Assembly: GCA_024975835.1 (NCBI GenBank)
Contig: GCA_024975835.1_4840.2
Length of the DNA: 20,653 nucleotides
Strand: one strand, 5' to 3'
From: a phage
Position 1 is the stretch's first letter. Each line of letters starts with the position of its first letter. This document shows positions 1-14,915 of the stretch, in pieces. Below the pieces are notes generated by a model, which was not told where the DNA came from, did no database searches, and worked only from the letters and a program-made list of their open reading frames with translations. The translations under genes were made by a program, and so were the position numbers.

Positions 1-56
1 ATTATTCAATAACTGGCGAACGATGGGTTCACCGGGTTGAAAGGTAAGATTATATC

Positions 57-296
57 ATGAAGAACAAAATGGTCGAAACTTCAGTAGAGATTGATCGCAA
101 TTGGGGATTGCTCCGCGCTAAAGGGTTCCGCCGTGTGTATGCGACCAAAGAAGTCTACGCACAGCGTCGTGACGTTATCATCAGCAAGAAGGGCAAAGAG
201 TGGGTTGCTGAAGAAGTTGATGTCGAGACAGGCATCGTGGGAAAGGTAAAGGCCAAGGCCGCGATCCTCTTCGCTCTTCTGAAGCACATCAGTTAA
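57..296 (+). CDS. hypothetical protein (79 aa)
   Basis: Complete ORF; ATG preceded by AAGGTAAGATTATATC, i.e. SD-like AGGT plus the recurring TATATC-ATG start context. No recognisable motifs. Confidence 0.5.
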   Translation: MKNKMVETSVEIDRNWGLLRAKGFRRVYATKEVYAQRRDVIISKKGKEWVAEEVDVETGIVGKVKAKAAILFALLKHIS

Positions 297-307
297 TTCT
301 ATAACTT

Positions 308-333
308 TGGGTGGGGTATGATTACCCCGCCCA
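308..333 (+). promoter_or_regulatory. strong intergenic hairpin (11-bp stem with one G.U, loop TGAT); possible terminator or RNA processing/stability element
   Basis: TGGGTGGGGTA-TGAT-TACCCCGCCCA read directly from sequence between the stop at 296 and the start at 356. Only a short T run follows, so it is not a textbook intrinsic terminator. Confidence 0.4.
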
Positions 334-355
334 TTTGAAACCAAGAGACTATATC

Positions 356-733
356 ATGAAAAAGTTAATCCTCGCTGTTGCCCTGCTGGGCGCTTCCTTT
401 GCTGCTGTTTCCGCCCCTTCTGTCATCACTGGGGTGTCTACCAACGGTGTTTATGCTTTCAAGGCGTATGGCCAAGACCTCGTTCTGTATAAGAACGGGA
501 AGATGATTGAGCGCTGCGTATCAGACGACGTGAATCGTGGGATCGACAATCAGGGTAGCCCATACGTCCTGGACATCTATTCCTGCTCCAACGGGACGAA
601 GTCCTTTGGCGTCAAGACCTTTGGCAACGTCGCCGACGGTGGCTGGGGCTTCATGTTCGAAACCCGCAACCACCACCCGGTCAAGACCATGCAAGAAGAG
701 TTCTTGATCTCTGTCGGGGGTGGAACATTATGA
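356..733 (+). CDS. secreted/periplasmic protein with cleavable signal peptide (about 125 aa)
   Basis: ATG at 356 inside the track ORF 311..733 (the track start at 311 is GTG). N-terminus MKKLILAVALLGASFAAVSA-PSV is a classic Sec signal (K-K, hydrophobic core, AxA-like site). Start sits in GACTATATC-ATG context. Confidence 0.6.
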   Translation: MKKLILAVALLGASFAAVSAPSVITGVSTNGVYAFKAYGQDLVLYKNGKMIERCVSDDVNRGIDNQGSPYVLDIYSCSNGTKSFGVKTFGNVADGGWGFMFETRNHHPVKTMQEEFLISVGGGTL

Positions 734-1017
734 CGCCTGAACAACGCCGTTCCGTGAAAGTCATGGTGAAAGGTAAGACTCAGCTGAGTTATGTCCAGTC
801 TGCCAATGTTGTCCGCCTGATGGAAGTCAAGAACGACATCGACAACTCCCGATTCCAATCGGCGCTCTACGGGCTTCTCGAGTTCGTTCTTCGCCAGGCT
901 GATCTTGGTCCTGTCTATACTCTTGATGATCTGACCAAGCTGTTGAACACGGGCGGGGAAGGTTTCGACACTGCTCGTATCCTGATTGACGGTGGACCTG
1001 AAGAAGACGAGGTATAA
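730..1017 (+). CDS. hypothetical protein (95 aa)
   Basis: ORF whose ATG overlaps the upstream stop (ATGA at 730-733), suggesting translational coupling. No recognisable motifs. Confidence 0.5.
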   Translation: MTPEQRRSVKVMVKGKTQLSYVQSANVVRLMEVKNDIDNSRFQSALYGLLEFVLRQADLGPVYTLDDLTKLLNTGGEGFDTARILIDGGPEEDEV

Positions 1018-1177
1018 TTTGGATAAAGAATTGGTTTGGGAAATTGTGAAGGGTGTCTTAGTAATAATCGCGGTGGTTTTCATCTTGGGTGGGAACTTCT
1101 TCTATTGGTTATTCCGATCCGACCAGAAACGTCGCAAACGCAAGGAGAAAGAGAGAAAGGATCGATGGATGCGCTAA
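986..1177 (+). CDS. small membrane protein, one predicted TM helix and basic C-terminal tail; start uncertain
   Basis: Hydrophobic segment VLVIIAVVFILGGNFFYWLF followed by KRRKRKEKERK. The ATG at 986 overlaps the upstream gene by 32 nt; alternative in-frame starts TTG 1019 (GAGGT 5 nt upstream) or GTG 1043 are equally plausible. Confidence 0.35.
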   Translation: MTVDLKKTRYNLDKELVWEIVKGVLVIIAVVFILGGNFFYWLFRSDQKRRKRKEKERKDRWMR

Positions 1178-1209
1178 CTAAGGGATAACCCTATATCCCG
1201 AGGTGTGTC

Positions 1210-1659
1210 ATGTTCCTTACATCCTTTATTGACTGGTTGAACATCATTAACGGCCTGAGGATCCCTGTTGGGAACCTCGGGCTTTCTCGTTCTTCTATGC
1301 CGCAAATCGATGCCGACAAACAAGAAGATTTTCACAAATATCTTGAAGACAACGGTGTGTCCATAGATGCTGTGCAAGTGCCCATCAAAATGCTTCGTCT
1401 CACCCAGAACGAAATCAACAAGATGAAGGTCTGGAAGATCATGAAGAACATCAGAAATAAGAAACCTATGGGTCGAGTTTGGGTGTCTTCTGACAATTAC
1501 GTTGTTGACGGTTCTCACCGATTTGTCGCTGCGTTGAACATGGACGGCAAACAGCGCATGAAGGTCTACAAAGTTGATTTGCCAGCGATGGAATTTATTA
1601 AACTCGCTAAACAGTTTCAGGGTGTGCGATACAGAACGGTCAGCGACACCCGTTTCTGA
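1210..1659 (+). CDS. ParB/sulfiredoxin-like (ParB N-terminal nuclease-type) domain protein
   Basis: Motif VVDGSHRFVAA resembles the ParB/Srx-fold signature (DG-HR-xAA). GAGG lies 8 nt upstream of the ATG. Assignment is by motif only. Confidence 0.5.
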   Translation: MFLTSFIDWLNIINGLRIPVGNLGLSRSSMPQIDADKQEDFHKYLEDNGVSIDAVQVPIKMLRLTQNEINKMKVWKIMKNIRNKKPMGRVWVSSDNYVVDGSHRFVAALNMDGKQRMKVYKVDLPAMEFIKLAKQFQGVRYRTVSDTRF

Positions 1660-1738
1660 ATACGATAGTTTATTGAATCCCTTTACTCATTATGGTGAGC
1701 CGCCTATCATTTCATCCAATGAAATAAGGAGAATCGCC

Positions 1739-2425
1739 ATGAAACGTTTAATCCTCGGGGTTGTGCTGGCTGGTCTGGCATTACCCGCCGCTGCCAAGCT
1801 GAACTCCACAGGTGATAAACTGTGGTCCGACCTTTCCTATTGTGCTGGGTTCTCCCAGGCGGTTGCCATCGACAAGTCTGGTTCCATAGAGAACTTCGCT
1901 GAACTCTGGAACACAGGTAACGTCTCCACTGCTGTCGTCAATGCCGGAATTGAGTTCAACCGTTACAAACAGGGAGCCTATAACCTCAAGGGCTACCTCA
2001 ATGACGACGAATTTAACCGTGGAGGCATGGAGGCTGGCGATTTGATCATGACTGGGCGTATGGGCACCCAAGGCCGAATGACCGTAAGACAGTGCCGTTC
2101 GCTCCCTTCTCCAGCATTACAGAAGGGTGTGCAGGTTGGTCGCCGCCACCTGAACCTTATCAACGATGGCAACCAGTGCATCAAAGTATTCGAATACAGC
2201 GCTACGCAGACCTCTGATCGCGTCCTGAAGAAGGAATGGCGCACCCGCGCTCTTGGTCTCAGAGCCTGGCTGGTTGAGAACGATTATTACTTTGAAGACA
2301 GGGTTCAGAACGGTCTGAAAGACCTGGCCACGAATCTGAGCGTGAACCTTGATGATCCCCGCATGTCGCGCGAACTCCAGCAGACTCGTGTTGACTGCGA
2401 CAATATGATGAAGGAGAACGAGTGA
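1739..2425 (+). CDS. secreted protein with signal peptide (about 228 aa)
   Basis: ATG at 1739 inside track ORF 1574..2425, preceded by strong SD AAGGAG at 7 nt. N-terminus MKRLILGVVLAGLALPAAA-KL is signal-peptide-like. Confidence 0.65.
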   Translation: MKRLILGVVLAGLALPAAAKLNSTGDKLWSDLSYCAGFSQAVAIDKSGSIENFAELWNTGNVSTAVVNAGIEFNRYKQGAYNLKGYLNDDEFNRGGMEAGDLIMTGRMGTQGRMTVRQCRSLPSPALQKGVQVGRRHLNLINDGNQCIKVFEYSATQTSDRVLKKEWRTRALGLRAWLVENDYYFEDRVQNGLKDLATNLSVNLDDPRMSRELQQTRVDCDNMMKENE

Positions 2426-2751
2426 TGAAATGTAAAATCCTGCTCTTGTTGGTACTGATAGCCGGGTGTGTAAACGCCGCGCCACCGTCCAAACTGAACA
2501 CATGTGTGGCGTGGATGGAGACGTATCAGCAGTTCCACCCAGATGACAAAGATACATCTATCCTCCTGTCCGACTTCGAGGGAGAGCTGAAGCGCCTTGA
2601 TCTGTTCAGTGTTGATCAGATAGAGAATGCGCTGGATCTTCCCATGATGCTGACTGCGGCTGACAACAGTCCACAAACGAAGAAAGACCTGATGTATTGC
2701 CGGGGGATTGCCCAGGACTTTGTCGGATTTCAAAATAAAGTTTCGGGTTAA
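2425..2751 (+). CDS. putative lipoprotein (about 108 aa)
   Basis: MKCKILLLLVLIAGC carries a lipobox-like LIAG-C. AAGGAG lies 8 nt upstream of ATG 2425; the start overlaps the upstream stop (TGATG). Confidence 0.6.
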   Translation: MKCKILLLLVLIAGCVNAAPPSKLNTCVAWMETYQQFHPDDKDTSILLSDFEGELKRLDLFSVDQIENALDLPMMLTAADNSPQTKKDLMYCRGIAQDFVGFQNKVSG

Positions 2752-2772
2752 AATTTAGCCCTACATTGTGAA

Positions 2773-3657
2773 ATGAAGGAATACACTGTGATGCTCCTGA
2801 CCAAAACAATCGCTGCAGCGATTATCGAAAAGAATAAGGCTTTTGCCCCCAACGCAGCCAAAGTTATGTTGGTACACGAAGACGCTCGCGTGATCTTCGC
2901 CGAGAAGTTCGAGATGGGCGCGAAGTTCTGGTATGCCGACAACTTGCGTGAGAGCAAACTTCAGGGTATCATCCACAAACTGACTCTGGTCGCCAAGCGT
3001 AATGACCAGGGTGACTGGGTCGGCGTTTCTGACTTCAGTACGAAGATCACCCCAAAGGCTCCGCTTTCTCGTCAAGAGCGCATTCTGGAAGCCCAGGAAA
3101 AGCTGCGTGCGGCTCGGAGTACCCCAAAGGCGAAACCAGATGCAAGCCCTGTTATCAAGCCAGCGGTTGTTCCTAAGTCCAAATACCTCCCTCCCGTGAG
3201 TCAAAAGGCTGTGGAGCAATTGGTTGAGAAGCGCAAGGGTGACGTTGTGATGAAGTCTGACTCTTCAGTGGAGCCGTTCAAGCCGGATCCAGCAGAAGTA
3301 CAGGCGCTGGCAGAAAAGGTAAAGAATTCACAATTCATTTCCCTGCGTGAACTTGAACCGCCTACTCGCCGTCGTGTCGCCAACGAGCTGTTTGTGTCGT
3401 TCAGGTCGGATGGCAAGATCGTCCTGTGCAAAGCCCTGCGCGATGCAATCCCTTGGACAACTCTGAACATGATGGTCACTCGCGACTTCAAGCGTTTCGG
3501 TATCATGCAAGGCAAGGACTACAACGTCAACCAGAGCGGGACTTATGTTAATCGCGCCATGTGTGACAAACTGACCTTCCCAGAAGATACTGGAACGATC
3601 CGTGTCGTTCTGAACTGGGACGACAAGCTGAATATGTATGTTGGTGATTTCCAATAA
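2773..3657 (+). CDS. hypothetical protein (about 290 aa)
   Basis: Long ORF with a Lys/Pro-rich middle region. Start ambiguous between ATG 2773, GTG 2788 and ATG 2791; AAGGA at 2775-2779 favours one of the latter two. Confidence 0.55.
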   Translation: MKEYTVMLLTKTIAAAIIEKNKAFAPNAAKVMLVHEDARVIFAEKFEMGAKFWYADNLRESKLQGIIHKLTLVAKRNDQGDWVGVSDFSTKITPKAPLSRQERILEAQEKLRAARSTPKAKPDASPVIKPAVVPKSKYLPPVSQKAVEQLVEKRKGDVVMKSDSSVEPFKPDPAEVQALAEKVKNSQFISLRELEPPTRRRVANELFVSFRSDGKIVLCKALRDAIPWTTLNMMVTRDFKRFGIMQGKDYNVNQSGTYVNRAMCDKLTFPEDTGTIRVVLNWDDKLNMYVGDFQ

Positions 3658-3668
3658 TCAATAACCTC

Positions 3669-3700
3669 GGGTGGCTTATCATAAAGCTGCCCTTTCATTT
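3669..3700 (+). terminator. hairpin plus T-rich tail, candidate intrinsic terminator
   Basis: GGGTGGC-(10-nt loop)-GCTGCCC, a 7-bp stem with two G.U pairs, followed by TTTCATTT. Lies just after the stop at 3657. Confidence 0.35.
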
Positions 3701-3713
3701 GAGTGACTATATC

Positions 3714-4376
3714 ATGGAAAAACTTTATTCTATTATCGTCGGTCCTGATCCTGACGGATTATTCTTCGCCCCGTTGTCTTATATTGCCCACGCCCGTATC
3801 GGTAGCTATTACGCATATTGCACACGTGGCCACGACGGTTCCAATATCCTCCATTATAGCCGCCTGAACGATTTCCTGGAACTTCAACCAGAAGATGTTG
3901 TGCTGGCGCGTCGCGTGTTCATCGACTTCAACGCGATGCACAACAACGAAATCGACGCTCGCTATCATGCCATGCGTTCTATGGAAGGGGGAGACTGCAT
4001 TTATCGTATAGACCATTTTAGTGAGTTTACCGAATGTATTGATTGGTTTATCTCTGATAAAGTGATGGGTGAAAGAATCGTCACAACTCCGTGGGCACAT
4101 GCGGAACAACTTCGTGTGTCTACCGATGCGTACAAAGAAGTCGACAATCTGTGCAACAAGTTCCGCATCTCGGTGACCTGTAATCAAGACCTGGGCGAAG
4201 AGATACAATGGACAGCTGAGTCTCCTCATTTCAGTGACCTGGTGATGACGGCCGAAACCCGTTCCCGTGCTGTTATCCAGTTAGTACTCTGGGCGTTCTA
4301 CCAGCGCACCCCGTTCTCGTACATGGGACAGAAAGAGATTGATGAACTCCTGAAGTCTCACGCGGTGGAGGTGTAA
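3714..4376 (+). CDS. hypothetical protein (about 220 aa)
   Basis: ATG at 3714 inside track ORF 3699..4376, in GACTATATC-ATG context. No recognisable catalytic motifs. Confidence 0.6.
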   Translation: MEKLYSIIVGPDPDGLFFAPLSYIAHARIGSYYAYCTRGHDGSNILHYSRLNDFLELQPEDVVLARRVFIDFNAMHNNEIDARYHAMRSMEGGDCIYRIDHFSEFTECIDWFISDKVMGERIVTTPWAHAEQLRVSTDAYKEVDNLCNKFRISVTCNQDLGEEIQWTAESPHFSDLVMTAETRSRAVIQLVLWAFYQRTPFSYMGQKEIDELLKSHAVEV

Positions 4377-4377
4377 T

Positions 4378-4656
4378 ATGGCTGGTGTATGGTGTGATGT
4401 CTTGCTGGTTCGTTACAGCGTAAATGGGTGTGTCCAAGTGCGTTCCGCCTTCTATCCAGTACCGTTCTCTTCCGGTGGCCTGACGGTTCAGCGAGTTCTC
4501 AATATTGAGGCAGAACTGAACAAAAAGTCTTTTGGTGTACAAGTCCTGGGGTACGATCTTCTGAATGAAATGATGGTTGAAGAAGACAAAGTTGAGACTG
4601 TCATTGGTCGTCAGGAGATGGAATCGTTAATCTCCAAATCGGAGGTCAAATCATGA
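4378..4656 (+). CDS. hypothetical protein (92 aa)
   Basis: ORF starting 2 nt after the upstream stop (TAATATG). No motifs recognised. Confidence 0.5.
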   Translation: MAGVWCDVLLVRYSVNGCVQVRSAFYPVPFSSGGLTVQRVLNIEAELNKKSFGVQVLGYDLLNEMMVEEDKVETVIGRQEMESLISKSEVKS

Positions 4657-4901
4657 GTCCCAACATGGCAATAATCTGGGTTGGTGAATCGTCAATGCGT
4701 TGTCCTCACAAGACGATCACCTTCTTGGACGATGAGCGCCTGGCCGAACAACGGGTTGAAGTCCGCGAAATGCAGGTTTCTTCAAAGGCGGTGAACGTTC
4801 CTGTGACTAATATTCAGACTTTTAAGCCTTGCGTCAGAGTGATTTGTGAACGCTGTGGATGTTATGGCACGATGACGACTGAAGACGTGGCGAAAGGCTA
4901 A
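4653..4901 (+). CDS. hypothetical protein with Cys-rich C-terminus (82 aa)
   Basis: ATGA overlap with the upstream gene. C-terminal CxxxxICERCGC cluster could bind a metal. Function unknown. Confidence 0.5.
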   Translation: MSPNMAIIWVGESSMRCPHKTITFLDDERLAEQRVEVREMQVSSKAVNVPVTNIQTFKPCVRVICERCGCYGTMTTEDVAKG

Positions 4902-4994
4902 TAATTTCGCTTTATTCAATATGTTTTGTTAGGTAAGATGTAGTCCTCTTGTAGTGAACATGAAAGTAAACATTAACCCAACGGAGAAATCCAG

Positions 4995-5273
4995 ATGAAT
5001 CGTACTGAATTTGTTGCCCACATTGCTTCGACCCAGAACATCACCAAAGGCGAAGCGGAGAAAGTAGTGGCATCCTTTATCGACGGTGTAAAAACTGCAG
5101 TTGCTGCAGGCGCATCTGTACAGCTGGTCGGCTTCGGTGCGTTCGAAGTGAAACACCAAGAAGCGCGTGAAGGTCGCAACCCTCTGAACGGCCAGACCAT
5201 TCAGATCGCGGCGAAAAACGTTGTGAAATTCAAAGTGGGCGAAGGTCTGAAGAACGCTGCCAACGGCAAGTAA
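4995..5273 (+). CDS. HU/IHF-family histone-like DNA-binding protein
   Basis: Protein is 92 aa, typical HU length. Contains the HU-family arm signature VQLVGFGAFEVKHQEAREGRNPLNGQTIQIAAKNVVKFKVG (compare bacterial HU GFGxF...R.GRNP...I.A...F..G). GGAG lies about 9 nt upstream. Confidence 0.85.
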   Translation: MNRTEFVAHIASTQNITKGEAEKVVASFIDGVKTAVAAGASVQLVGFGAFEVKHQEAREGRNPLNGQTIQIAAKNVVKFKVGEGLKNAANGK

Positions 5274-5322
5274 TTCTATCTGACGCGCGGCCAGGCTCTG
5301 CAATCAGGGCATGGCAAAAGAG

Positions 5323-5355
5323 AAAGCCGGAGTACAATGCTCCGGCTTTTTCGTT
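5323..5355 (+). terminator. rho-independent terminator
   Basis: AAAGCCGGAG-(7-nt loop)-CTCCGGCTTT followed by TTTTTCGTTCTT, directly downstream of the HU-like gene. Confidence 0.7.
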
Positions 5356-5401
5356 CTTGGGGATCGGGTAAACTATAGGCGAATCCCATAGGAGGAAGAA
5401 A

Positions 5402-7120
5402 GTGACAGCATTCAACCAATATACTAAGGCGCTTGACGGCGTCGGACCAGTCAGCATAGACCGCATCAAGTCTCTTGCCACTGAGTTCTTCCCGTATGAC
5501 ACCGCCAACCCCGGCCAGATGGAATGCATCGTTGAAGCCATCGATGCCCTTGTGAATAAGAAATTCAAACACGTGATCATCGAGGCTCCGACTGGTGTAG
5601 GTAAATCCCTCATCGGCACTACCATCCATAACGTGCTTCGCCATTTGGTTCTTGAGCACAACCCGTATGGTCAGTTCCGCACGTCTATCACGACGCCGAC
5701 CAAAGGTTTACAGGATCAGTATGCAGCAGAGAAAGCCGTGGCGATAGACATCCTGAAGGGCAAGAAGAATTACCGTTGCCACATCAGTCCCGACCTATAC
5801 TACAACGCCATTCAGTGCCGTATGGCATGCCGTGATGGCCAGTGTAGTAAGAATCGTTGCCCATATGTTCAGGCGCGTCGACAGTGGACCGACGTCTCCT
5901 CCCTGCGCTGCACCAACGCCGCCATGATGGTGGAGATGTGCACGACGATCTGTATGAAGCCGGAAAACCGTGCCGATATGCTGATCCTTGACGAGTGTCA
6001 TAAAATGCCCTCTACGCTCCTAGAGCATACTATCATGGAATACAACATAAAGGCTGTGGAAGGGCTGCTTACGATCCCAGAGGGGGTGCCTATCGTGGAG
6101 ACCATCAAGGATATCATCATCCGCACAGAGAACTATGAATTGGGCAACCTGTATTCCCTGTCTGGTGAGATGCATGCGATATTTGATGAACTGCACGGCA
6201 AGGTTGAAGCCCTGTTGGAAACTCTTGAGGAACTGGTAGAGGACGAGCGCCTGACTGAAGCCCAGGTGATGAAGCTGTCTGATATTATTGATACTCTTCA
6301 CAACCTCAGCGACTACTGTGGTATCATGGGGCAGACCAACGCCAGCACTTTCATCGTACAGGAGAAGGACAAGGGTATGATTCAGTTCAAGCCTGTCATC
6401 GCCTCTGATGTATCCCAGTTCGGCCTGTTCCGCAAGGGTGACTACCACGTCCACATGTCGGCTACCATTTGTGGGATTGACTCGTACGCCCGGTCACTGG
6501 GTATCCGCGAGGGTGAGTACCACAAGATACAGATCGGCAACCCTATCCCGATTGAGAACCGGAAAGTCAACTACATGCCCATCATGAAGATGACAGCGAA
6601 CATGGGTGACTATGAGATGAAGAAGCTGGCCGAATACGTTGATGAAATCATCGCATTCCACCCTGGGCAGTCTGGTATCATTCACACAGTAAGTTATGAC
6701 CGCGCCCTGGCTATACAGAAGTTCAGTAAGTACCGGAATATGATTCACGTTCCTCGTACTCGTAAGGCTCTGATGGACATCATGGAACACGCGTTCAGGA
6801 CGAAGACGCCTTGTGTCATCGCCAGTCCGGCCATGGAAGAGGGGTATGACTTCAAAGGCGATTACAGTCGATTTCAGATCTTGATCAAGGTGCCATACGA
6901 TTACCTTGGTGATCCTCTGGTGGCCCACGTCAACAGTGTGGACCCATCGGCGTACTTCAGGATGGCGGTACTGCGTATCGTTCAGATGTGTGGGCGTTCG
7001 GTCAGGGGCGTGAATGACTGGGCTGCGACGTACATCCTTGATTCTTCTTTTGAATCACTGATGATGCGCAACCCAGAGTTCTTCCCCGCTTGGTTCACTG
7101 ATGCCGTGTTTGAGGTTTAG
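5402..7120 (+). CDS. SF2 DExH-box helicase with Cys-rich insert between motifs I and II (DinG/XPD-like architecture)
   Basis: GTG start with AGGAGG 6 nt upstream. Walker A EAPTGVGKS, motif II LILDECH, motif III SAT (HMSATICG), motif VI QMCGRSVRG. Five Cys within about 30 residues (RCH...QCRMACRDGQCSKNRCP) lie between motifs I and II, where XPD/DinG helicases carry their Fe-S domain. Confidence 0.8.
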   Translation: MTAFNQYTKALDGVGPVSIDRIKSLATEFFPYDTANPGQMECIVEAIDALVNKKFKHVIIEAPTGVGKSLIGTTIHNVLRHLVLEHNPYGQFRTSITTPTKGLQDQYAAEKAVAIDILKGKKNYRCHISPDLYYNAIQCRMACRDGQCSKNRCPYVQARRQWTDVSSLRCTNAAMMVEMCTTICMKPENRADMLILDECHKMPSTLLEHTIMEYNIKAVEGLLTIPEGVPIVETIKDIIIRTENYELGNLYSLSGEMHAIFDELHGKVEALLETLEELVEDERLTEAQVMKLSDIIDTLHNLSDYCGIMGQTNASTFIVQEKDKGMIQFKPVIASDVSQFGLFRKGDYHVHMSATICGIDSYARSLGIREGEYHKIQIGNPIPIENRKVNYMPIMKMTANMGDYEMKKLAEYVDEIIAFHPGQSGIIHTVSYDRALAIQKFSKYRNMIHVPRTRKALMDIMEHAFRTKTPCVIASPAMEEGYDFKGDYSRFQILIKVPYDYLGDPLVAHVNSVDPSAYFRMAVLRIVQMCGRSVRGVNDWAATYILDSSFESLMMRNPEFFPAWFTDAVFEV

Positions 7121-7884
7121 TAACCCGCAACGAAGGACAGATGGCACTTGACATTCGGTTCCAACGACGTCACAGAAACCGTCATATTGTCCGTATCTTG
7201 GCTGAAGTCAATGGTGGCGAGAGGTTTGGTCTGAATATGGTTGTAAACACTGTAGATCAGATCCTCGCCACGATACCCTACCTTCCCGTCGGTGTCTTGC
7301 CAATGACCCAGTGTCTCATCGTAGACATGTACTCTGAACTCGATCATATGGAAGAGTGCCTTGGGGATGTCCTTGAGCACGCTGGTGCCAACCACGGGAA
7401 TCTCTATGCTGGAATCATTGGAGTTCCCTTCATAGACCGAAGCCCATGCAAAGGTAGGATCACCCCCAGCAACAGGGGTTCGCTTCCAGTATTGGAATTC
7501 TGGGTTGCCTGAAGCGTTCTTCTGAAGTAGAATGACCTCACCACCTTTGAAGTTCGAAGTATCGATGTCGCCTCGCTGAAGTTCATCTGCTGGAGATCCA
7601 ATAAATTTCCAGCCTTCGCGATCCAATAAAGACTTATAATAGTCGGTGAACACGTTGCTGTCTTCTGCATCGTTGATGGCATCTTTGAGACCTTGGCCTG
7701 TCACCATCTCGTTGAGCTTCAACCACATGTTCTTGACAGCAGACGCTGCTGCGACTTGTCCAGCAGTCCCACCTGCAGCATAATCATAGATGATATCTTC
7801 TGACTTGATAGCATCATAGATAGAGAGGAGCAATTGCTCAATCTGCGGGGCGGTGAGACTGAAACGATATGCGCGGGGTGCCAT
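7117..7884 (-). CDS. hypothetical late protein (about 255 aa), only convincing minus-strand gene in the window
   Basis: Start assigned to ATG 7884 (MAPRAYRF...) within track ORF 7117..8043, because GAGGAA lies about 8 nt upstream and a TATAAATA box lies about 36 nt upstream on the minus strand. 3' end converges on, and overlaps, the helicase stop. No catalytic motif recognised. Confidence 0.6.
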   Translation of the reverse strand: MAPRAYRFSLTAPQIEQLLLSIYDAIKSEDIIYDYAAGGTAGQVAAASAVKNMWLKLNEMVTGQGLKDAINDAEDSNVFTDYYKSLLDREGWKFIGSPADELQRGDIDTSNFKGGEVILLQKNASGNPEFQYWKRTPVAGGDPTFAWASVYEGNSNDSSIEIPVVGTSVLKDIPKALFHMIEFRVHVYDETLGHWQDTDGKVGYRGEDLIYSVYNHIQTKPLATIDFSQDTDNMTVSVTSLEPNVKCHLSFVAGY

Positions 7885-7919
7885 AGTTTCATTCCTCTTT
7901 CTATAAAACCAGTTTGGGA

Positions 7920-7927
7920 TATTTATA
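7920..7927 (-). promoter_or_regulatory. T4-type late promoter box TATAAATA on the minus strand
   Basis: Plus-strand TATTTATA at 7920-7927 is the reverse complement of TATAAATA, positioned upstream of the minus-strand ATG at 7884. A gp55-like late sigma factor is encoded in this same window. Confidence 0.5.
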
Positions 7928-7929
7928 TC

Positions 7930-8457
7930 ATGATAGAAATTTATTCTGACGGGGGTTCTAACCCGAAGACCAACCAGGCCGCAGGTTGGGCATTTGTCAT
8001 CAGGCCAATAACGGGTATGCAATGGAAGGTGTTCTTCGGCCATCTACCTCCCCCGTCCACTAACAATATCGCCGAGTTGTTGGGCGTGACCAACGCATTG
8101 AAGCTGCTGTGGGCATTCTCAGGAAAGGGTGAGCGCAGAATACCAAAGGCAACAATTTGGTCTGACAGCCAATATGCCATCAAGAGTGTCACCGAATGGC
8201 GAACGAAGTGGGAGTATCAGGGTTTCCCAGACAAGAACGTTGAACTCATCAAAGATCTGTTCAGAATCTATGATCTCGTTTGTTCAATTTGTGATGTTGA
8301 ACTAAAATGGGTTAAGGGTCATGCGGGGCACGAAGGCAACGAACTTGCCGATGACTGGGCCACAGCAGCCAAAAACGACAGCAACTTCCTGATTGAGAAT
8401 GACAAGATCTCAGTGAAGAAGGTTGTTGGATCTTTTGATGAATTTATCGGTATCTGA
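7930..8457 (+). CDS. rnhA: ribonuclease H, type 1 (RnhA-like)
   Basis: Start ATG 7930 (MIEIYSDGG...) within track ORF 7834..8457. Catalytic signatures IYSDGG, NNIAEL, SDSQY and WVKGHAGHEGNELADDWA correspond to the D-E-D-H-D active-site pattern of E. coli RNase HI. Confidence 0.85.
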   Translation: MIEIYSDGGSNPKTNQAAGWAFVIRPITGMQWKVFFGHLPPPSTNNIAELLGVTNALKLLWAFSGKGERRIPKATIWSDSQYAIKSVTEWRTKWEYQGFPDKNVELIKDLFRIYDLVCSICDVELKWVKGHAGHEGNELADDWATAAKNDSNFLIENDKISVKKVVGSFDEFIGI

Positions 8458-8468
8458 GGGCTTTCATA

Positions 8469-9260
8469 ATGGGAATGAACTTCGTGGACAGAGGGGAGAA
8501 TGTCGTCAAATATTTCACGGACGAAGACAACGAGCGTGTCATCAGTATCCTTCGTGATTGGATCCCTGCTCGTAAGAAGGCTCTGGCTGAAGGCACCAGG
8601 CTTCCAAAGATCCCCAACTATGTTGCTCTACAGGTCCAGCGCATCATCACCAAGATGAGTACCCGCTACAACTATCGCGACTATCCCTTCCGTGAAGACA
8701 TGGTCTCTGAAGCAATAGTCAACATCCTGCGCTACCTCCACACCTTTGACGTCGAACACATTGGAAAGAAAGGGAAGATCAACTTCTTCTCTTGGGTGAC
8801 CATGTGTGCTGATCGCTCATTTGCTCGTAAACTGAACATCGAAGAAGAGCACACGTACATTAAATTGCGCTCATTTGAAGAGGCGGGTGGGTTCGCAGGC
8901 CTGGCAGACGATCCCGACTTCCAACAAGAGATCTTTGTTGATGCTACAGGAATTGGCATGGACTTCCGTGAGCGTATCGGTAACTTTGAGAACAAAAAGG
9001 ACGCTCAAAGACAGAAGGAGCGAGAGAAGGTGGAGGCAGCTCGTCTCGCAGAATCGAATAAAAAGATTGCGAAAGGCATACTTCAATACATGGCGCAGGC
9101 TAAGAATACGGTAACAGCGCAGGCCGAAGACAATTCAGATCAGGACTTTGGCAAAACCCAATTCAATCTGGAAGATGATATCTGTGCGATGGAACCAGAT
9201 TGGGAAGCCCTCAAACAAAGATTAGAAGAACGGGAGAAAAAGAATAATGGCGATTGCTAA
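8469..9260 (+). CDS. gp55-like late-transcription sigma factor with extended charged C-terminal tail
   Basis: Pattern RYNYRDY...VNILRYLHTFD...NFFSWVTMCADRSFARKL parallels T4 gp55 as I recall it (RFNFSGY...LHNFD...YITQACFNAFVQRI). Protein is about 80 aa longer than T4 gp55, with a Lys/Glu-rich C-terminal region. Confidence 0.75.
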   Translation: MGMNFVDRGENVVKYFTDEDNERVISILRDWIPARKKALAEGTRLPKIPNYVALQVQRIITKMSTRYNYRDYPFREDMVSEAIVNILRYLHTFDVEHIGKKGKINFFSWVTMCADRSFARKLNIEEEHTYIKLRSFEEAGGFAGLADDPDFQQEIFVDATGIGMDFRERIGNFENKKDAQRQKEREKVEAARLAESNKKIAKGILQYMAQAKNTVTAQAEDNSDQDFGKTQFNLEDDICAMEPDWEALKQRLEEREKKNNGDC

Positions 9261-10362
9261 AATCGGCGATCTGCATATCGGGAGCCGTAATGGTTCCCGA
9301 TACGTTCGCGACTTCATCAAGAACTATCTCATCAATTATTTCATCCCTGAACTTGTCGACTCTGATATCAAAGAGGTCTGGCAGTTCGGTGATACGTTTG
9401 ATGTCCGCAAATTCATGTACGGGCGTGACAAGGACTGGTTGAAAGATGAGCTGACTCCGGCGCTGAAAGCTGCTGGGATCAAGTGGAATGGTATTGTTGG
9501 TAACCACGACATCACCCTGGAAGAGTCTAACCGCATCAACTGGCCATCCTACCTGAACGAACTCGACCCAGATGTGTACTGCTATTATAGCGAACCGACC
9601 GAAGTGATGATCGAGGGTGTCAAGACTCTGCTCCTACCGTGGATCAACAAGGAGAACTATGATGCGTCTATTAAGGCGATACAAGATACAGACGCCGAGT
9701 ACTGTTTTGCGCATCTGGAGCTGGCAGGGTTCAAAATGTACCAGTCCTCTACTTGTGATCACGGTCAGATCGACGTTGCGTTGCTTTCCAAGTTTACCAG
9801 GGTCGACACGGGACATTTCCATACCCGTTCGATGGAAGGTAACATTCAGTATCTTGGGACTCCGTATCACCTGAACTGGGAAGACTACAAAGATGGCACC
9901 AACCGTGGCTTCTATGTGGACGACATGCGCGGTGGTGAGGTCTTTATCCCGAACGCCGAGAATCAGACGTTGTTCCGCTATGTGGAATATGATTACACCA
10001 AGTTGTCCTCAGACGATGAGGGTAACTGGATCAACCCGGAATGGCTGAACACAGGCTTGGGTATTGAAGGGCAAATCGTTAAGGTTATTGTACAGAATCG
10101 CGACAATGCTAAGCATTATGAAAAGTTCTGTGATGCCATGAAGCGCTGTAAGTGCATTGACTACAACTTCATCGACCGGACTATTACCGTAGCGGCTGAG
10201 AAGGTTGAGGTCACCGAAGAGATGGTGGCAACCGACGCAGTGGAAGTCCTAAAGAAGGATATCCGCGCCGGGAACAACATCCAGCGCCCTGAAAACGTCT
10301 GCAAGCTGGCAGAGCACTTCTACAACGCTGCCCAACAACGTCTGAATACACTGGATGCATAA
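9247..10362 (+). CDS. gp47-like Mre11/SbcD-family recombination nuclease (calcineurin-like phosphoesterase)
   Basis: Phosphoesterase motifs GDLHIG, GDTFD, GNHD and GHFH, with N-terminal similarity to T4 gp47. Overlaps the gp55-like gene by 14 nt. Confidence 0.85.
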   Translation: MAIAKIGDLHIGSRNGSRYVRDFIKNYLINYFIPELVDSDIKEVWQFGDTFDVRKFMYGRDKDWLKDELTPALKAAGIKWNGIVGNHDITLEESNRINWPSYLNELDPDVYCYYSEPTEVMIEGVKTLLLPWINKENYDASIKAIQDTDAEYCFAHLELAGFKMYQSSTCDHGQIDVALLSKFTRVDTGHFHTRSMEGNIQYLGTPYHLNWEDYKDGTNRGFYVDDMRGGEVFIPNAENQTLFRYVEYDYTKLSSDDEGNWINPEWLNTGLGIEGQIVKVIVQNRDNAKHYEKFCDAMKRCKCIDYNFIDRTITVAAEKVEVTEEMVATDAVEVLKKDIRAGNNIQRPENVCKLAEHFYNAAQQRLNTLDA

Positions 10363-12700
10363 CATGACTCAAAGTACAGATATCCTGGCCAAATTTGGCA
10401 ATCTTTTGAAGGAAGCTGACACCCCGGTAGAGGTGGAAGTCCCATTTGAAGTGCGTGATAACGTTACGCACAAACTAACTTTCCGCAAAGGTCGTGCCAA
10501 AAACTTCCGTTCCATCGGCAATCAGTTCATGGAGATTGATTATCAGCGCAACCCAGCCACCCTTGTCACGTCTGATGACAACGGCGCGGGTAAATCCACG
10601 ATGTTGGTATGGCTGCTGTTCTTCGTACTGTACAACACCACGTACAGTAAGAAGGAGAAGAAGGCAGGCCTGGTTAACTCACAAAGCCGCAAGGAATGTG
10701 TGGGTGAGGTAGAGTTTGCCTGTCGTGGTAGTGAATGGAAAGTTCGCCGGGGTATCAAGCCCGACTTTGTTGAAGTCTACCAGATGGTGGACGGTAAGTG
10801 GTTGAAGATCGATAACGAAGCAGCCAAAGCCGACATGAACAAGTACATCGTGAATCTCATCGGTGTAGACCAGAAGATGTTTGAGAACTCTCTGGTGCTG
10901 GGCAAAGAGAAGTTCATTCCGTTCACGGAGATGTACACAGCCGACCGCCGCGCCATGGTGGAGACTATCTGGGACTTGGGCTTCTTCAGCCTGATGAACG
11001 AAGATGTCAAGGCATCCATCAAGAAAGCGAACGAAAAGCTGGACGCGATCGCGAATGAATGTGCGTTGAAGGTTGTTGACCACACCAACAAGAAGACGCA
11101 GCTACAGCAGATAGAGCGGTCCAATGCCCTTATCCAACAGCAGTCGGCCGATATCCTTGTGCAGCAACAGGAAGCCCTGACTTCCCTAGACGCTGACATC
11201 GCCGCCCAGAATGAAGAGCGCACCCGCCTCACTGCGGTTGAGTTCGAAGCCGCCCAGGAAATGAAGATAGTAGAAAGCCGCCTGCATGATGAATCCATGG
11301 TGGAGATCGATGCTGTCAAGAAAGACTTTGATGCCAAGATCCAGGCGGTGAAGGATGCCGCTCAGGAAAAGGCCGATGATTATGAGCGTATCGAAGTGTC
11401 TATTGCGGAGCATGATCTTCAGGTCTTGCGTGACCGCGCCTTTACAGTGGCCGAACGCAAGAACACCCTGCTCACCGAGCGCAACACAAACCTGGACGCC
11501 CTGAACGCTGCTATCCAGCGCCGTCAGCAGGGTGAGAACTTCCGTATCAAGTTCCAGACCGAAATGGATGGACATCAGTCGGCCATCAAGCGCTTCCACG
11601 ACATGGGGACTTGCCCAACATGTACCCAACTGGTGTCAGACGATACCAAGGCGCGTATTGAAAGCGAGTACAATCCTCAGATCCAGGAACTGCAGTCGAA
11701 GTTAGATCAACTGGACAAAGTTACCGCCGATATCAATGTCCTGATCGATGATCACAAGGCTCAGGACGATAAGTTGGTTGCTGACATTGCTGTGTTGGAT
11801 GCTGAACTGGATGCAATGCGCAAGCAGGCCGACGAAATCGTTGACAACATCAAGCAGCTGCGCCGTGATATTCAAGGTTTTCATGATGCCGCCACGATTG
11901 AGTGTAATTCGCTGAACCGTGAATGCCAACAGAAGATCCTTGACATCCGTAAGGCACTGAACGTTCGTTTTGAAGACATCACTGCGTCACTACAACAAAC
12001 TCGAGAGAATGCCGTCAGCGGGATTAAAGCCGTCGATGATAAGATCGCCGAGCTGAAAGCCCGTCGTGCTCCTCTCGTGGCGTCTATTGCCGATCTGGAG
12101 CGTAAACTGGCTGTACAGCCAACACCTACCACCGACCTGGAGAACTCTATCGCTGCGTTGGAAGGTGAACTGGAGTCTCTGTATGAACTCCGTGAAGATG
12201 CAGATGAGGAACTCCAGGACTTACAGCACCTGCTGTTCTTCTTGAAAGATGACCAGACCAAGGCGCGTATCATCGCCCTGTACTTGCCATTCCTCAATAG
12301 CAAGATCAACGAGTATCTTGAAGCCCTCAACATGTTCTTGGACATCGTTGTTGACGATACCTTTGAGATCACCATGAGCGCAGCAGGCCGCAAGGGACAG
12401 AGCATCTTCTCCCTGTCTACTGGCCAACGCAGTCGCCTGAACCTGGCTGTGACATTAGCTCTGCGCGATGTGGCTAACCTCAAGGCGTCTGTACAATGTA
12501 ACCTGTTCGTGCTGGACGAGATCCTTGAGAACATGAGCGAGCGCGGGGTGCAGGAATCGGTTGAGATGTTGAAGCATAAGTTCGGCGGGAACAACCTGTT
12601 TGTTATTAGCCAGCGCGAACAGGAGTTCCAGGAATACTTCCAACACAACATTCGCTACGGCCTGCGAAACGGCCTGACTGAAGTTATCAAGAAGGATTGA
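10355..12700 (+). CDS. gp46-like Rad50/SbcC-family ATPase
   Basis: Walker A DDNGAGKSTM, long coiled-coil middle, ABC signature LSTGQRSRLNLA, Walker B LFVLDE. Start is ATG 10355 or 10364 adjoining the gp47 stop; there is an N-terminal extension of about 35 aa relative to my recollection of T4 gp46. Confidence 0.85.
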   Translation: MHNMTQSTDILAKFGNLLKEADTPVEVEVPFEVRDNVTHKLTFRKGRAKNFRSIGNQFMEIDYQRNPATLVTSDDNGAGKSTMLVWLLFFVLYNTTYSKKEKKAGLVNSQSRKECVGEVEFACRGSEWKVRRGIKPDFVEVYQMVDGKWLKIDNEAAKADMNKYIVNLIGVDQKMFENSLVLGKEKFIPFTEMYTADRRAMVETIWDLGFFSLMNEDVKASIKKANEKLDAIANECALKVVDHTNKKTQLQQIERSNALIQQQSADILVQQQEALTSLDADIAAQNEERTRLTAVEFEAAQEMKIVESRLHDESMVEIDAVKKDFDAKIQAVKDAAQEKADDYERIEVSIAEHDLQVLRDRAFTVAERKNTLLTERNTNLDALNAAIQRRQQGENFRIKFQTEMDGHQSAIKRFHDMGTCPTCTQLVSDDTKARIESEYNPQIQELQSKLDQLDKVTADINVLIDDHKAQDDKLVADIAVLDAELDAMRKQADEIVDNIKQLRRDIQGFHDAATIECNSLNRECQQKILDIRKALNVRFEDITASLQQTRENAVSGIKAVDDKIAELKARRAPLVASIADLERKLAVQPTPTTDLENSIAALEGELESLYELREDADEELQDLQHLLFFLKDDQTKARIIALYLPFLNSKINEYLEALNMFLDIVVDDTFEITMSAAGRKGQSIFSLSTGQRSRLNLAVTLALRDVANLKASVQCNLFVLDEILENMSERGVQESVEMLKHKFGGNNLFVISQREQEFQEYFQHNIRYGLRNGLTEVIKKD

Positions 12701-12702
12701 TC

Positions 12703-12867
12703 ATGAACTACGAACAAATTAAACTCGCAATCCTGGTCTTTGCATGCATCATTGACATCATTGCATTTTCTCGTGAAGTCGAAAGGAAAAACTACCTGAA
12801 AGCACTGGGGTATCTCGGGTTCTCTGTCTGGTTCTGTTATCTACTTGCAGGTCAAATCCTGAAATGA
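12703..12867 (+). CDS. small membrane protein with two predicted TM segments (54 aa); absent from the ORF track because it is under 60 aa
   Basis: ATG 12703 lies 2 nt after the gp46 stop and the stop overlaps the next ATG (ATGA). Hydrophobic stretches IKLAILVFACIIDIIAF and LGYLGFSVWFCYLLAG read from my own translation. Confidence 0.4.
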   Translation: MNYEQIKLAILVFACIIDIIAFSREVERKNYLKALGYLGFSVWFCYLLAGQILK

Positions 12868-13193
12868 AAGTCGTCCACTTCAAGAAGGAGCCATATGACG
12901 TCTACATTGGTCGGCCTGGTAAATGGGGGAACCCGTTTGAGGTCAAAGACCATGGACGAGGCGTCTGTATCGAACTGTTTGAGGACGACCTGTATGTGCG
13001 CCTGATTGAAGGGGATATCACTGAGGATGAACTCCTTGATCTTGACGGGAAGGTATTGGGGTGCTGGTGTAAGCCGCGCCCCTGTCACGGAGATGTTTAC
13101 GTCAAAGTCATTGGTCGTATTAAACTATTCCGCAAGCTGGGTAAATCCTTTACTGAACACCTGAGACAAACATATGTCAGAATCAAAAGATGA
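12864..13193 (+). CDS. conserved protein with GNPF and CWCxPxxCHG motifs (I believe the DUF4326 family)
   Basis: Motifs WGNPF and CWCKPRPCHGDV in a roughly 110-aa protein. Family assignment is from memory of the motif pair and is not database-verified. Confidence 0.55.
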   Translation: MKVVHFKKEPYDVYIGRPGKWGNPFEVKDHGRGVCIELFEDDLYVRLIEGDITEDELLDLDGKVLGCWCKPRPCHGDVYVKVIGRIKLFRKLGKSFTEHLRQTYVRIKR

Positions 13194-13458
13194 TATCCAA
13201 GACTCCTGTGACATTGCGGTTGAAATCTGGAACCGTCGGAACCCGCATTACCAGGTGACCGTCACGCCAAATCGCTACCTTGAGCAGGGCGGTTTGATTG
13301 TTGTTGATGCTGTACTTGCGTTCAACAAGTACACCGACATGCAAATCCTGGACGGCAACTTCACTGTCGCGACCAAGACGGCTTGGGATGACCCGATGGA
13401 GTTTGTCTATGGCTGGCTGGAATGCATCGAGGAATCCTACCACCTCATCTATGAATGA
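13174..13458 (+). CDS. hypothetical protein (94 aa)
   Basis: ORF overlapping the upstream gene end by 20 nt. No motifs recognised. Confidence 0.5.
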   Translation: MSESKDDIQDSCDIAVEIWNRRNPHYQVTVTPNRYLEQGGLIVVDAVLAFNKYTDMQILDGNFTVATKTAWDDPMEFVYGWLECIEESYHLIYE

Positions 13459-13463
13459 GGCTG

Positions 13464-13497
13464 AAGGGCACTAAATATCACGTGCCCTTTATCTTTT
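13464..13497 (+). terminator. hairpin plus T-rich tail, candidate intrinsic terminator
   Basis: AAGGGCAC-(10-nt loop)-GTGCCCTT followed by TATCTTTT, a few nt after the stop at 13458. Confidence 0.55.
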
Positions 13498-13555
13498 AAC
13501 ACCTGTCAGGAGGCTCAAGCGAGCTGCAAGTCGACAAAACATAAGGAACGCCATC

Positions 13556-14170
13556 ATGACGATGACAACGTTGAAGGCCATGGCCTTGTCCGTGACCTTT
13601 ACCATTGCCAGCGGGAATGTGCACGCTTCCCAAAGTACCACCCAATGTGATTATAATTTCTCCGAGCAACAACTCAATACACTGGCAACCGCCTATCACG
13701 TAGGCAAGACACAAGATCTTGGCTACACTCTGGCCGCCATATCTTGGCGAGAGAGCCGCGCTGGTGAAGATGTAGTGTCAATGCGATACGGCCTCAAGGC
13801 GGCCAACATGGGAGCCTTTCAGAACAAGGTGAAGACAGTTGGTGATCGCGAAGGTTGTAAGAATCGCAAGTGCTATGCCAATGTCGCCATAAAGTTGCTG
13901 ACCGACCAAGAATATGCCGCGCAAGCCGCCCTCGATGAGATGCAGTTCTGGCTGACCTATCACAATCAGAATATCCGCAAATCCCTCTCCTCTTACAATG
14001 CTGGCTTCGCCCGTAATCCCGCATCGAACGCGTATGCTGCCGACGTCGTGAAGAAAGCTAAATATCTTCAGAAATGTGTGTCCTTCGAAGGCCGGACCAT
14101 CTCCGAGGTAGATCCTCAGGTGATCGCCATGAACAAGCACACAATAGAGAAACTGAAGAGGACAAGATAA
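13556..14170 (+). CDS. SLT-domain lytic transglycosylase-like protein with N-terminal signal or SAR-like segment
   Basis: Order of motifs SWRES...GAFQ...SYNAG mirrors family-1 lytic transglycosylases (ES...GLMQ...AYNAG). N-terminus LKAMALSVTFTIASGNVHA is hydrophobic and Ala/Ser/Thr/Gly-rich. AAGGAA lies 8 nt upstream. Confidence 0.6.
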   Translation: MTMTTLKAMALSVTFTIASGNVHASQSTTQCDYNFSEQQLNTLATAYHVGKTQDLGYTLAAISWRESRAGEDVVSMRYGLKAANMGAFQNKVKTVGDREGCKNRKCYANVAIKLLTDQEYAAQAALDEMQFWLTYHNQNIRKSLSSYNAGFARNPASNAYAADVVKKAKYLQKCVSFEGRTISEVDPQVIAMNKHTIEKLKRTR

Positions 14171-14822: not shown

Positions 14823-14849
14823 AAGGGGCTTTTGCCCCTTTACTTCTTC
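14823..14849 (+). terminator. rho-independent terminator
   Basis: AAGGGGC-TTTT-GCCCCTT followed by TACTTCTTC, 15 nt after the stop at 14808. Confidence 0.6.
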
Positions 14850-14915
14850 AATATCCTTCCCTATACTTCATTCCATAAGCAGTACGACACCAACTTGAAA
14901 AGCAGGAACTATATC

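Follow-up and report, generated by a model that had tools for sequence, protein, structure and literature searches.

The subject of this report is a gene for an HU-family (type II) DNA-binding protein, together with its flanking control elements, in a 20,653-nt stretch of phage DNA (contig GCA_024975835.1_4840.2 of NCBI GenBank assembly GCA_024975835.1); we call the whole of this stretch the window and give positions on it throughout. The window comes from an Agtrevirus (Ackermannviridae, Aglimvirinae), not from a T-even phage: over its entire 20.6 kb it shares 95-96% identity with several Agtrevirus genomes and 92.5% with Shigella phage Ag3; Salmonella phage CECAV_050 matches 96% of it at 95.9% identity, and the HU region is 98-99% identical in Escherichia phages RPN242 and YX22. 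The HU unit itself comprises the following features:

4909..4957, plus strand: conserved non-coding block of 49 nt, a candidate promoter plus operator or initial transcribed sequence (alignment of six phages from five genera)
4911..4916, plus strand: candidate -35-like hexamer TTTATT; TTTA.T is invariant in the six phages
4934..4939, plus strand: candidate -10-like hexamer TAAGAT; TAA..T is invariant, as is a G two bases upstream
4940..4957, plus strand: tandem TGTAGT motifs 11 nt apart (GTAGTCCTCTTGTAGTGA), just 3' of the -10-like hexamer; TGTA..CCTCTT.TAG is invariant in the six phages
4983-4986, plus strand: Shine-Dalgarno sequence GGAG, 8 nt before the ATG, kept in five of the six aligned phages
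4995-5273, plus strand: HU-family gene, 92 amino acids plus stop, ATG start (Pfam, PHROG, fold and homology)
5290..5315, plus strand: possible first 3' hairpin past the stop codon, weakly indicated, its sequence not conserved across genera
5320..5358, plus strand: intrinsic terminator with a 15-pair stem and a CAA loop, then TTTTTCGTTCTT (folding, covariation, and annotation in Salmonella phage Marshall and in LIMEstone1)

The HU protein and its putative transcription unit

The initial annotation had recognized an HU-family protein with an AT-rich upstream region of its own and a strong terminator, and all three observations hold up, the coordinates of the gene included. The protein matches the Pfam profile PF00216 (Bac_DNA_binding) at full length, residues 1-90 falling on positions 1-90 of the 90-position profile, with 103.8 bits against a cut-off of 22.4 (E 6.1e-30); it also matches PHROG 379, "DNA binding protein" (E 4e-36), and, by sequence, solved chains of HU, IHF (integration host factor) and TF1, the HU-family protein of phage SPO1. 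An AlphaFold2 model built with 49 homologues has a mean pLDDT (predicted local distance difference test) of 96.3 and the HU topology, with helices at residues 3-14, 18-37 and 83-90 and strands across 42-81; a Foldseek search with this model returns the solved HU and IHF structures at a probability of 1.00 and template-modeling (TM) scores of 0.85-0.90. The residues that characterize the family at the tip of the arm (R58, G60, R61, N62, P63) and in the strand G46-F47-G48-x-F50 (GFGAF) are all present and are invariant in the Ackermannviridae clade.

The 93-bp spacer in front of the gene (4902-4994) has a GC content of 33%, as against 49% for the whole window. Its 49-nt block is 88-92% identical among Agtrevirus, Limestonevirus, Kuttervirus and Taipeivirus, with 66% retained in Erwinia phage Bue1, whereas the HU coding sequence retains only 71-78% nucleotide identity across genera; that an upstream block should be more conserved than the coding sequence which follows it is a new detail of the present analysis. 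The two hexamers within the block, TTTA.T and then TAA..T, lie 17 nt apart (18 in Bue1), which is the TTTAYT-17-TAnnnT layout of a promoter-like site that a scan found at 14839-14867. The tandem TGTAGT element has no second copy in the window or in 150 kb of CECAV_050, and GGTAAGMTGTAGT, CCTCTTGTAGTGA and the full 49-nt block each occur once per genome.

Three other identities for the leader were considered and rejected. The block does not represent a recurrent class of phage promoter, as its motifs are single-copy and their sole look-alike is within chance. A T4-like middle promoter with a MotA box fares no better: the sequence (T/C)GCTTTA at the start of the block resembles such a box, but it stands 19 nt from TAnnnT instead of about 12, and the lack of MotA and AsiA in the Ackermannviridae (PMC3184105) counts against this reading as well. 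Likewise, a known RNA element is not supported for either the leader or the 3' region, Rfam giving only a sub-threshold chance match (ar35, 19.9 bits against 45) and the leader being unstructured, with no stable RNA fold (z = +1.5). The look-alike in question is GGTAAACTATAG, at 5367-5378 before the helicase gene, which resembles GGTAAGATGTAG in the block ahead of the HU gene; the genome has no match beyond these two, and as many were reached in 14 of 100 shuffles. Elsewhere we observed a promoter-plus-leader repeat family of the form TTTACTTCTTCAATA-N9-TATACTTCATTCCATAAGCAGTAC, represented at 14839-14890 in the window and at about 12365 and 46326 (minus strand) of L003, with a hairpin before each copy; these copies are likely to be strong early promoters with a shared 5' leader.

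Downstream of the gene, the hairpin at 5320-5352 with its T run has a folding energy of -22.9 kcal/mol (z = -7.5 against shuffled sequences), and the site at 5320-5358 ranks first among the terminator-like sites of the window. The terminator scan registered it on the minus strand only; with a run of A before the stem and a run of T after it, the terminator should be readable in both directions and is thus potentially bidirectional. Across genera, pairing is preserved throughout the stem proper, two of the 14 pairs having changed on both sides in a compensatory manner. In Erwinia phage Bue1, a non-homologous hairpin with a T run occupies the same position, and the records of Marshall and LIMEstone1 carry the same terminator as an annotated feature. 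At the other end of the unit, the content of upstream genes varies among relatives from a breakpoint at about position 4877, and block, gene and terminator stay together. The variable upstream genes, the covariation within the terminator and the alternative hairpin of Bue1 together support a monocistronic unit that would be transcribed before the late phase.

The variable slot itself (3765-4876) has its 3' end about 32 nt before the conserved block. Three open reading frames (ORFs) in this region, at 3699-4376, 4378-4656 (DUF7425) and 4653-4901, are absent from Marshall and many Agtrevirus genomes, and in other genera superinfection-exclusion or lipoprotein genes occupy the slot just upstream of the HU unit.

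Codon usage bears on the likely level of expression. The fraction of E. coli-optimal codons (Fop) of the HU gene, 0.747, is the highest of the 24 ORFs in the window (median 0.55), and the orthologue in CECAV_050 ranks third of 164 ORFs, just under the major head protein. Its top rank in the window, and a choice of codons similar to that of the major capsid gene, suggest that the HU protein is abundant. On the matter of timing, a k-mer screen of the upstream regions of CECAV_050 brought out CTAAATA, which precedes genes for head, tail and terminase in 11 regions where 0.7 would be expected. This motif probably represents the family's late promoter of the gp55 type, which earlier papers could not define. 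It is not found before the HU gene, whose leader has only GTAAACA, and a late promoter for the gene was rejected as unlikely because CTAAATA is absent there. Two further observations from this comparison may be recorded. The extended motif CTAAATA(C/T)C is strongly enriched 25-60 nt upstream of structural genes in CECAV_050; it occurs at many sites of L002-L004 and at 13471, 14058 and 18722 of the window, the last of these copies lying in a hairpin loop. Further, a 162-residue protein of phrog_3764, encoded just past the end of the window (L003 4544-5032), has an optimal-codon fraction of 0.82, which exceeds that of the major head protein and is the highest in the genome.

Inheritance of the HU gene in the Ackermannviridae

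Homologues of HU are uncommon in phages, as the initial annotation had fairly stated: tblastn finds one in 538 of 50,697 phage records, about half of which (approximately 270, at 60% identity or more) are Ackermannviridae. An identical protein (100%) is annotated in phages ZQ1 and PC3, and protein identity falls to 97% in Limestonevirus, 85% in Kuttervirus, 74-75% in Taipeivirus and 48% in Erwinia phage Bue1. The gene order is common to five genera, namely variable genes, HU, terminator, helicase and a reverse-strand virion protein, and the published core genome of the family includes the HU gene, directly adjoining the helicase (PMC10892097). The ratio of nonsynonymous to synonymous substitution rates (dN/dS) is 0.08-0.15, with synonymous sites saturated between genera (dS > 1), and the divergence of the gene parallels that of the helicase. 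On these comparisons we regard the HU gene as a syntenic core gene of the Ackermannviridae, inherited vertically under purifying selection in five genera. It is already annotated in more than 250 genomes and, as a sequence feature, is ordinary.

Had the gene been a recent copy of a host hupA or hupB, as the initial annotation had allowed, its relationships would look different. The protein shares only 40% identity with E. coli HU-alpha and 41% with HU-beta, and among 5.8 billion proteins no non-phage homologue exceeds 53% identity. Against the NCBIfam equivalog models it scores below every cut-off: 69.7 bits against 157 for HU-beta, 67.3 against 162 for HU-alpha, 72.9 against 111 for IHF-alpha and 67.9 against 115 for IHF-beta. 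In neighbor-joining (NJ) trees, the core clade of the Ackermannviridae is recovered in 97 of 100 bootstrap replicates and a grouping with E. coli HU in none of 100. By these sequence criteria, recent capture from a host is refuted.

The neighbors of the HU gene are replication and recombination genes on the same strand, of which the first is its constant 3' neighbor in all genera:

5402..7120, plus strand: DinG/XPD-type helicase (Pfam Helicase_C_2, DEAD and ResIII; phrog_2488)
7834-8457, plus strand: RNase H
8469-9260, plus strand: gp55-like late sigma factor (phrog_234)
9247-10362, plus strand: gp47/SbcD-like gene
10355-12700, plus strand: gp46/SbcC-like gene
19278-20414, plus strand: primase

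The earlier observation that gp47 directly follows gp55 is correct, with the gp46/SbcC-like gene next in line; since the window is not from a T-even phage, the lack of an alpha-glucosyltransferase gene between the two is simply the ordinary gene order of the Ackermannviridae. Some features of this neighborhood and of the wider genome deserve brief mention. Salmonella phage Marshall (Kuttervirus) is 95-98% identical to positions 1-8462 of the window and only 78-88% identical over 8475-13632, and the change falls where Marshall carries an inserted GIY-YIG homing endonuclease, between RNase H and gp55, which suggests inter-genus recombination at a homing site. A 980-residue ORF at 15324-18266 (phrog_3867) has no Pfam match, and a short C-terminal stretch of it resembles an internal head protein (phrog_7673, E 4e-10). 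The family also has a second core "histone family DNA-binding" protein, of 166 residues (phrog_4164; L002 6570-7070, outside the window), encoded near rIIB and topoisomerase genes. It has no Pfam or NCBIfam match, and it is this protein to which the "histone like protein" entry of the core genome refers (PMC10892097).

Modified thymine and the role of the HU protein

The initial annotation had taken the HU gene and the missing alpha-glucosyltransferase as hints of a non-T4 base modification. Phages of this type do have one, derived from 5-hydroxymethyl-deoxyuridine (5-hmdU) and already published, but the absence of that gene reflects only the usual gene order of the family, and possession of an HU is not in general predictive of the modification. 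In phages ViI, CBA120, CBA6 and 1.255.O, about 40% of the thymine is replaced by 5-(2-aminoethoxy)methyl-deoxyuridine (5-NeOmdU), which is made post-replicatively from 5-hmdU (PMC5889632); phages Ag3 and SKML-39 are listed as encoding the 5-hmdU DNA kinase (PMC5889632; reviewed in PMC11721090), and CBA120, which does not incorporate thymidine, carries an SPO1-like dUMP hydroxymethylase (PMC3184105). The window itself holds none of the thymine-modification genes. When the search for hydroxymethylase-type genes that had been advised was extended to the closely related genome of CECAV_050, the pathway was found: this phage encodes the kinase HMUDK_HMUD1 (PF18748, E 1.6e-108), HMUD2 (PF18747, E 1e-156), an amino-acid:DNA transferase (ADDT; PF18724, E 3e-59), a pyridoxal-phosphate (PLP) enzyme and a divergent protein of the thymidylate-synthase (TS) fold whose score falls well short of the TS equivalog cut-offs. 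YX22 and Ag3 have the 5-hmdU kinase too. For the phage of the window itself the modification is predicted, from the published chemistry of relatives and the pathway genes of CECAV_050. What the modified thymine of ViI does to promoters and regulation is said to await study (PMC6449724).

A separate case is Acinetobacter phage SH-Ab 15599, for which a new hypermodified thymine, alpha-dapT, is reported (PMC13458397). We observed that this phage encodes an HU homologue (MH517022.1 41491-41751), which would make it a third large phage lineage with both thymine replacement and an HU.

Against this background, we lean, with modest confidence, towards the following role: the gene product would be an abundant, early or middle homodimeric DNA-bending protein that acts on the partly cationic, replicating phage DNA much as TF1 acts on DNA containing hydroxymethyluracil (hmU). 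By homology, it is expected to be a small dimer that places two beta-ribbon arms in the minor groove and kinks the DNA via the conserved Arg58-Gly-Arg61-Asn-Pro63 tip; since a single gene is present, a homodimer would be expected and not an alpha/beta heterodimer. Host sigma-70 RNA polymerase would transcribe the monocistronic unit from the putative TTTATT-17-TAAGAT promoter before late transcription, and the protein would probably be made in large amounts. It might then coat and bend replicating phage DNA in which about 40% of the thymine is cationic 5-NeOmdU, and thereby assist replication, recombination, late transcription or condensation; this TF1-like role on modified DNA is proposed by analogy with SPO1.

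The arms of the protein offer a possible sign of adaptation to such DNA. Over residues 51-76, the net charge is +0.7 in the Ackermannviridae clade (range 0 to +2). The nearest cellular HUs stand at +4.4, both HUs of E. coli (alpha and beta) at +4, and TF1 and Bue1 at +2; the difference is to be read as an observation and not as a test because the cellular set is biased to the nearest hits of the query. The arm residues associated with the low charge are Gln55, Glu51 and Glu56, joined in some members, including the window protein, by Glu59. Gln55 is invariant in the clade, whereas this position is Arg in 76 of the 78 compared HUs and likewise in E. coli HU and TF1; Glu51, Glu22, Ser41 and Glu83 are also fixed, at positions where cellular HUs mostly have Lys, Arg or a neutral residue. 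Both the near absence of arm charge and the invariant Gln55 may be adaptations to 5-NeOmdU DNA.

Several points weigh against the role that we favor, to which the bias of the charge comparison must be added. We found no paper on the binding, expression, knockout, transcription, proteomics or function of an Ackermannviridae HU. The sigma-70 consensus scan calls no promoter upstream of the HU gene, so that the promoter is a matter of inference, and the authors of the LIMEstone1 genome did not predict it either; the timing and abundance of the protein are for this reason read solely from codon usage and the absence of a motif. Counts over phage records do not support a general co-occurrence of HU with thymine hypermodification: the 5-hmdU kinase is found in 54 Pseudomonas and 45 Vibrio phage records, and in the HU search neither name ranks among the first ten, which leaves each with at most 10 records, so that at least 44 Pseudomonas phage records have the kinase and no HU; conversely, HU is found in 94 Ralstonia phage records, and the ten commonest names of the kinase search do not include Ralstonia. 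The comparison with TF1, whose sequence we recovered from an SPO1-like genome and which is identical to PDB 1WTU, is also less close than the analogy might suggest. The window protein is 39% identical to TF1 and no closer to it than to cellular HUs; TF1 has Phe61 where the window protein has Arg61, and it is 99 residues long with a 9-residue C-terminal tail, whereas the window protein ends in "NGK" at residue 92. Phe61 at the tip of the arm and the C-terminal extension are reportedly, from the work of Geiduschek and Grove, the determinants of TF1. Finally, a common origin with TF1 received 54 of 100 bootstrap replicates in a first NJ tree and none of 100 once HUs of Firmicutes were added, and we reject it as a sampling artefact.

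Other roles may be weighed against the same evidence. A more ambitious form of our proposal, which we hold to be possible though rather doubtful, would make the protein a dedicated "phage chromatin" component adapted to cationic 5-NeOmdU DNA by the loss of arm charge, telling phage from host DNA and organizing replication, partial post-replicative modification or late transcription; it would then be a convergent Gram-negative counterpart of TF1, with an autoregulated promoter/operator block.

It seems unlikely that the target is instead the host nucleoid, where the protein might take the place of host HU, combine with HU-alpha or HU-beta into inactive heterodimers, or alter host DNA by compacting or unfolding it, so aiding host shut-off and nucleotide scavenging. 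Such a factor would suit a probably early and strong expression, the dimer-interface core of the HU fold is kept, and the Ackermannviridae are without early regulators of the T4 Alc, MotA and AsiA type (PMC3184105), for which reason other host-directed factors are to be expected. However, with an identity to host HU of only 40-41% the formation of heterodimers is uncertain, and the weakly charged arms predict poorer, not stronger, binding to ordinary DNA.

Similarly improbable is an IHF-like, site-specific factor that bends DNA at one or a few phage sites, such as a replication origin, a hotspot of recombination, late promoters or the promoter block of its own gene. The nominal best NCBIfam and PDB sequence matches are indeed to IHF-alpha (72.9 bits) and to a single-chain IHF (E 1.2e-21), the unique and invariant tandem TGTAGT element 3' of the -10-like hexamer could be an autoregulatory site, and TF1 is cited as having preferred sites on hmU DNA (Greene et al. 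1986, as cited in PMC6449724). Yet the IHF scores, which offer no advantage over the HU scores, fall far short of the equivalog cut-offs, and a capsid-like codon usage suits an abundant protein better than a factor for few sites.

We give very little credence to a packaged DNA-condensing protein loaded into the capsid with the genome, a role that the initial annotation had suggested in naming packaging. HU-type proteins do condense DNA, and a cationic base, putT of phage phiW-14, has been linked to tighter DNA packing (PMC6449724), which makes compaction of the DNA a recurring theme of such phages. However, the liquid chromatography-tandem mass spectrometry (LC-MS/MS) list for CsCl-purified virions of the Kuttervirus Sajous1 has no entry for HU or a DNA-binding protein (Table 6 of PMC10892097), which speaks against it. 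The gene, moreover, sits among replication genes and lacks CTAAATA, the late-promoter-like motif that precedes head and tail genes. Small basic proteins can escape mass spectrometry, and the virion list is therefore not absolute evidence.

The weakest alternative, a recently captured hupA or hupB copy carried as a moron without a phage-specific role, can be dismissed: the HU family is bacterial in origin and "HU-beta" is the gene name in some database records, but the low identity to E. coli HU, the sub-threshold equivalog scores, the failure of any bootstrap replicate to join E. coli HU, and a syntenic core position in five genera with a dN/dS of about 0.1 and a divergence parallel to that of the neighboring helicase leave it practically no probability.

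The HU gene and the modified thymine of the family were already on record; what is new here is the 49-nt block, the capsid-like codon usage and the nearly uncharged arms with their Gln55. For decades, to our knowledge, no nucleoid-type protein that reads a modified base has been studied apart from TF1 of SPO1. The ViI-like phages are in wide use for typing and biocontrol; the hypermodification of their DNA is chemically defined, and their hosts are amenable to genetics. Should the HU of their core genome prove to prefer 5-NeOmdU DNA, they would provide a second, independent and easily manipulated system beside TF1 for the study of how bulky, charged adducts in the major groove are dealt with by architectural proteins and RNA polymerase, and of how a phage tells its own DNA from that of its host. 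Without such a preference, the protein would be just another phage-borne HU.

Relation to other HU-family proteins

The window protein can be set beside four groups of relatives. The first are other virus-encoded members of the family, namely YonN of SPbeta, the proteins of temperate Ralstonia phages, that of Acinetobacter phage SH-Ab 15599 and pA104R of African swine fever virus (ASFV); they differ from it in being 30-43% identical and in lying in unrelated genomic contexts, and most of the phages among them are not known to modify thymine. IHF alpha and beta share the fold and give the nominally best sequence scores. The window protein nevertheless scores 30-40% below their equivalog cut-offs, and IHF is an alpha/beta heterodimer, whereas the window has a single gene.

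The cellular HUs of E. coli, Bacillus and Anabaena are like the window protein in matching PF00216 at full length, and the model superposes on the chains of the Anabaena HU-DNA co-crystals with TM scores of 0.86-0.88; Arg58, Gly60, Arg61, Asn62, Pro63 and the GFG.F motif of these proteins are all kept. The differences are an identity of 40-45%, with scores below the NCBIfam HU-alpha and HU-beta cut-offs; the replacement of Arg55 by Gln55 in the clade of the window protein, together with its fixed Glu51, Glu22, Ser41 and Glu83; and the setting of the gene, which is phage-encoded, putatively monocistronic and preceded by a conserved block specific to the phages.

With TF1, finally, the window protein shares its status as a phage-encoded HU-family member of about 90-100 residues with the same fold. 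Both come from large myoviruses that replace thymine through a dUMP hydroxymethylase pathway, and both genes have a replication gene as neighbor, which is DNA polymerase in Goe2 and SPO1 and the helicase in the window. In both cases, too, the beta-arms are less basic than those of cellular HUs (+2 in TF1 and +0.7 in the window clade, against +4 in E. coli). Beyond the differences weighed above, TF1 has GFLNI where the window protein keeps GFGAF of the GFG.F motif, and the DNA that each would meet is unlike: SPO1 DNA contains more than 98% neutral hmU, whereas in ViI-like DNA about 40% of the thymine is cationic 5-NeOmdU. The nearest solved relative of TF1 is Bacillus HU (E 3e-17, 47% identity). 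This affinity, combined with the absence of any common clade in the fuller tree, indicates at the sequence level that TF1 and the HU of the Ackermannviridae are independent recruitments of HU by two phage lineages.

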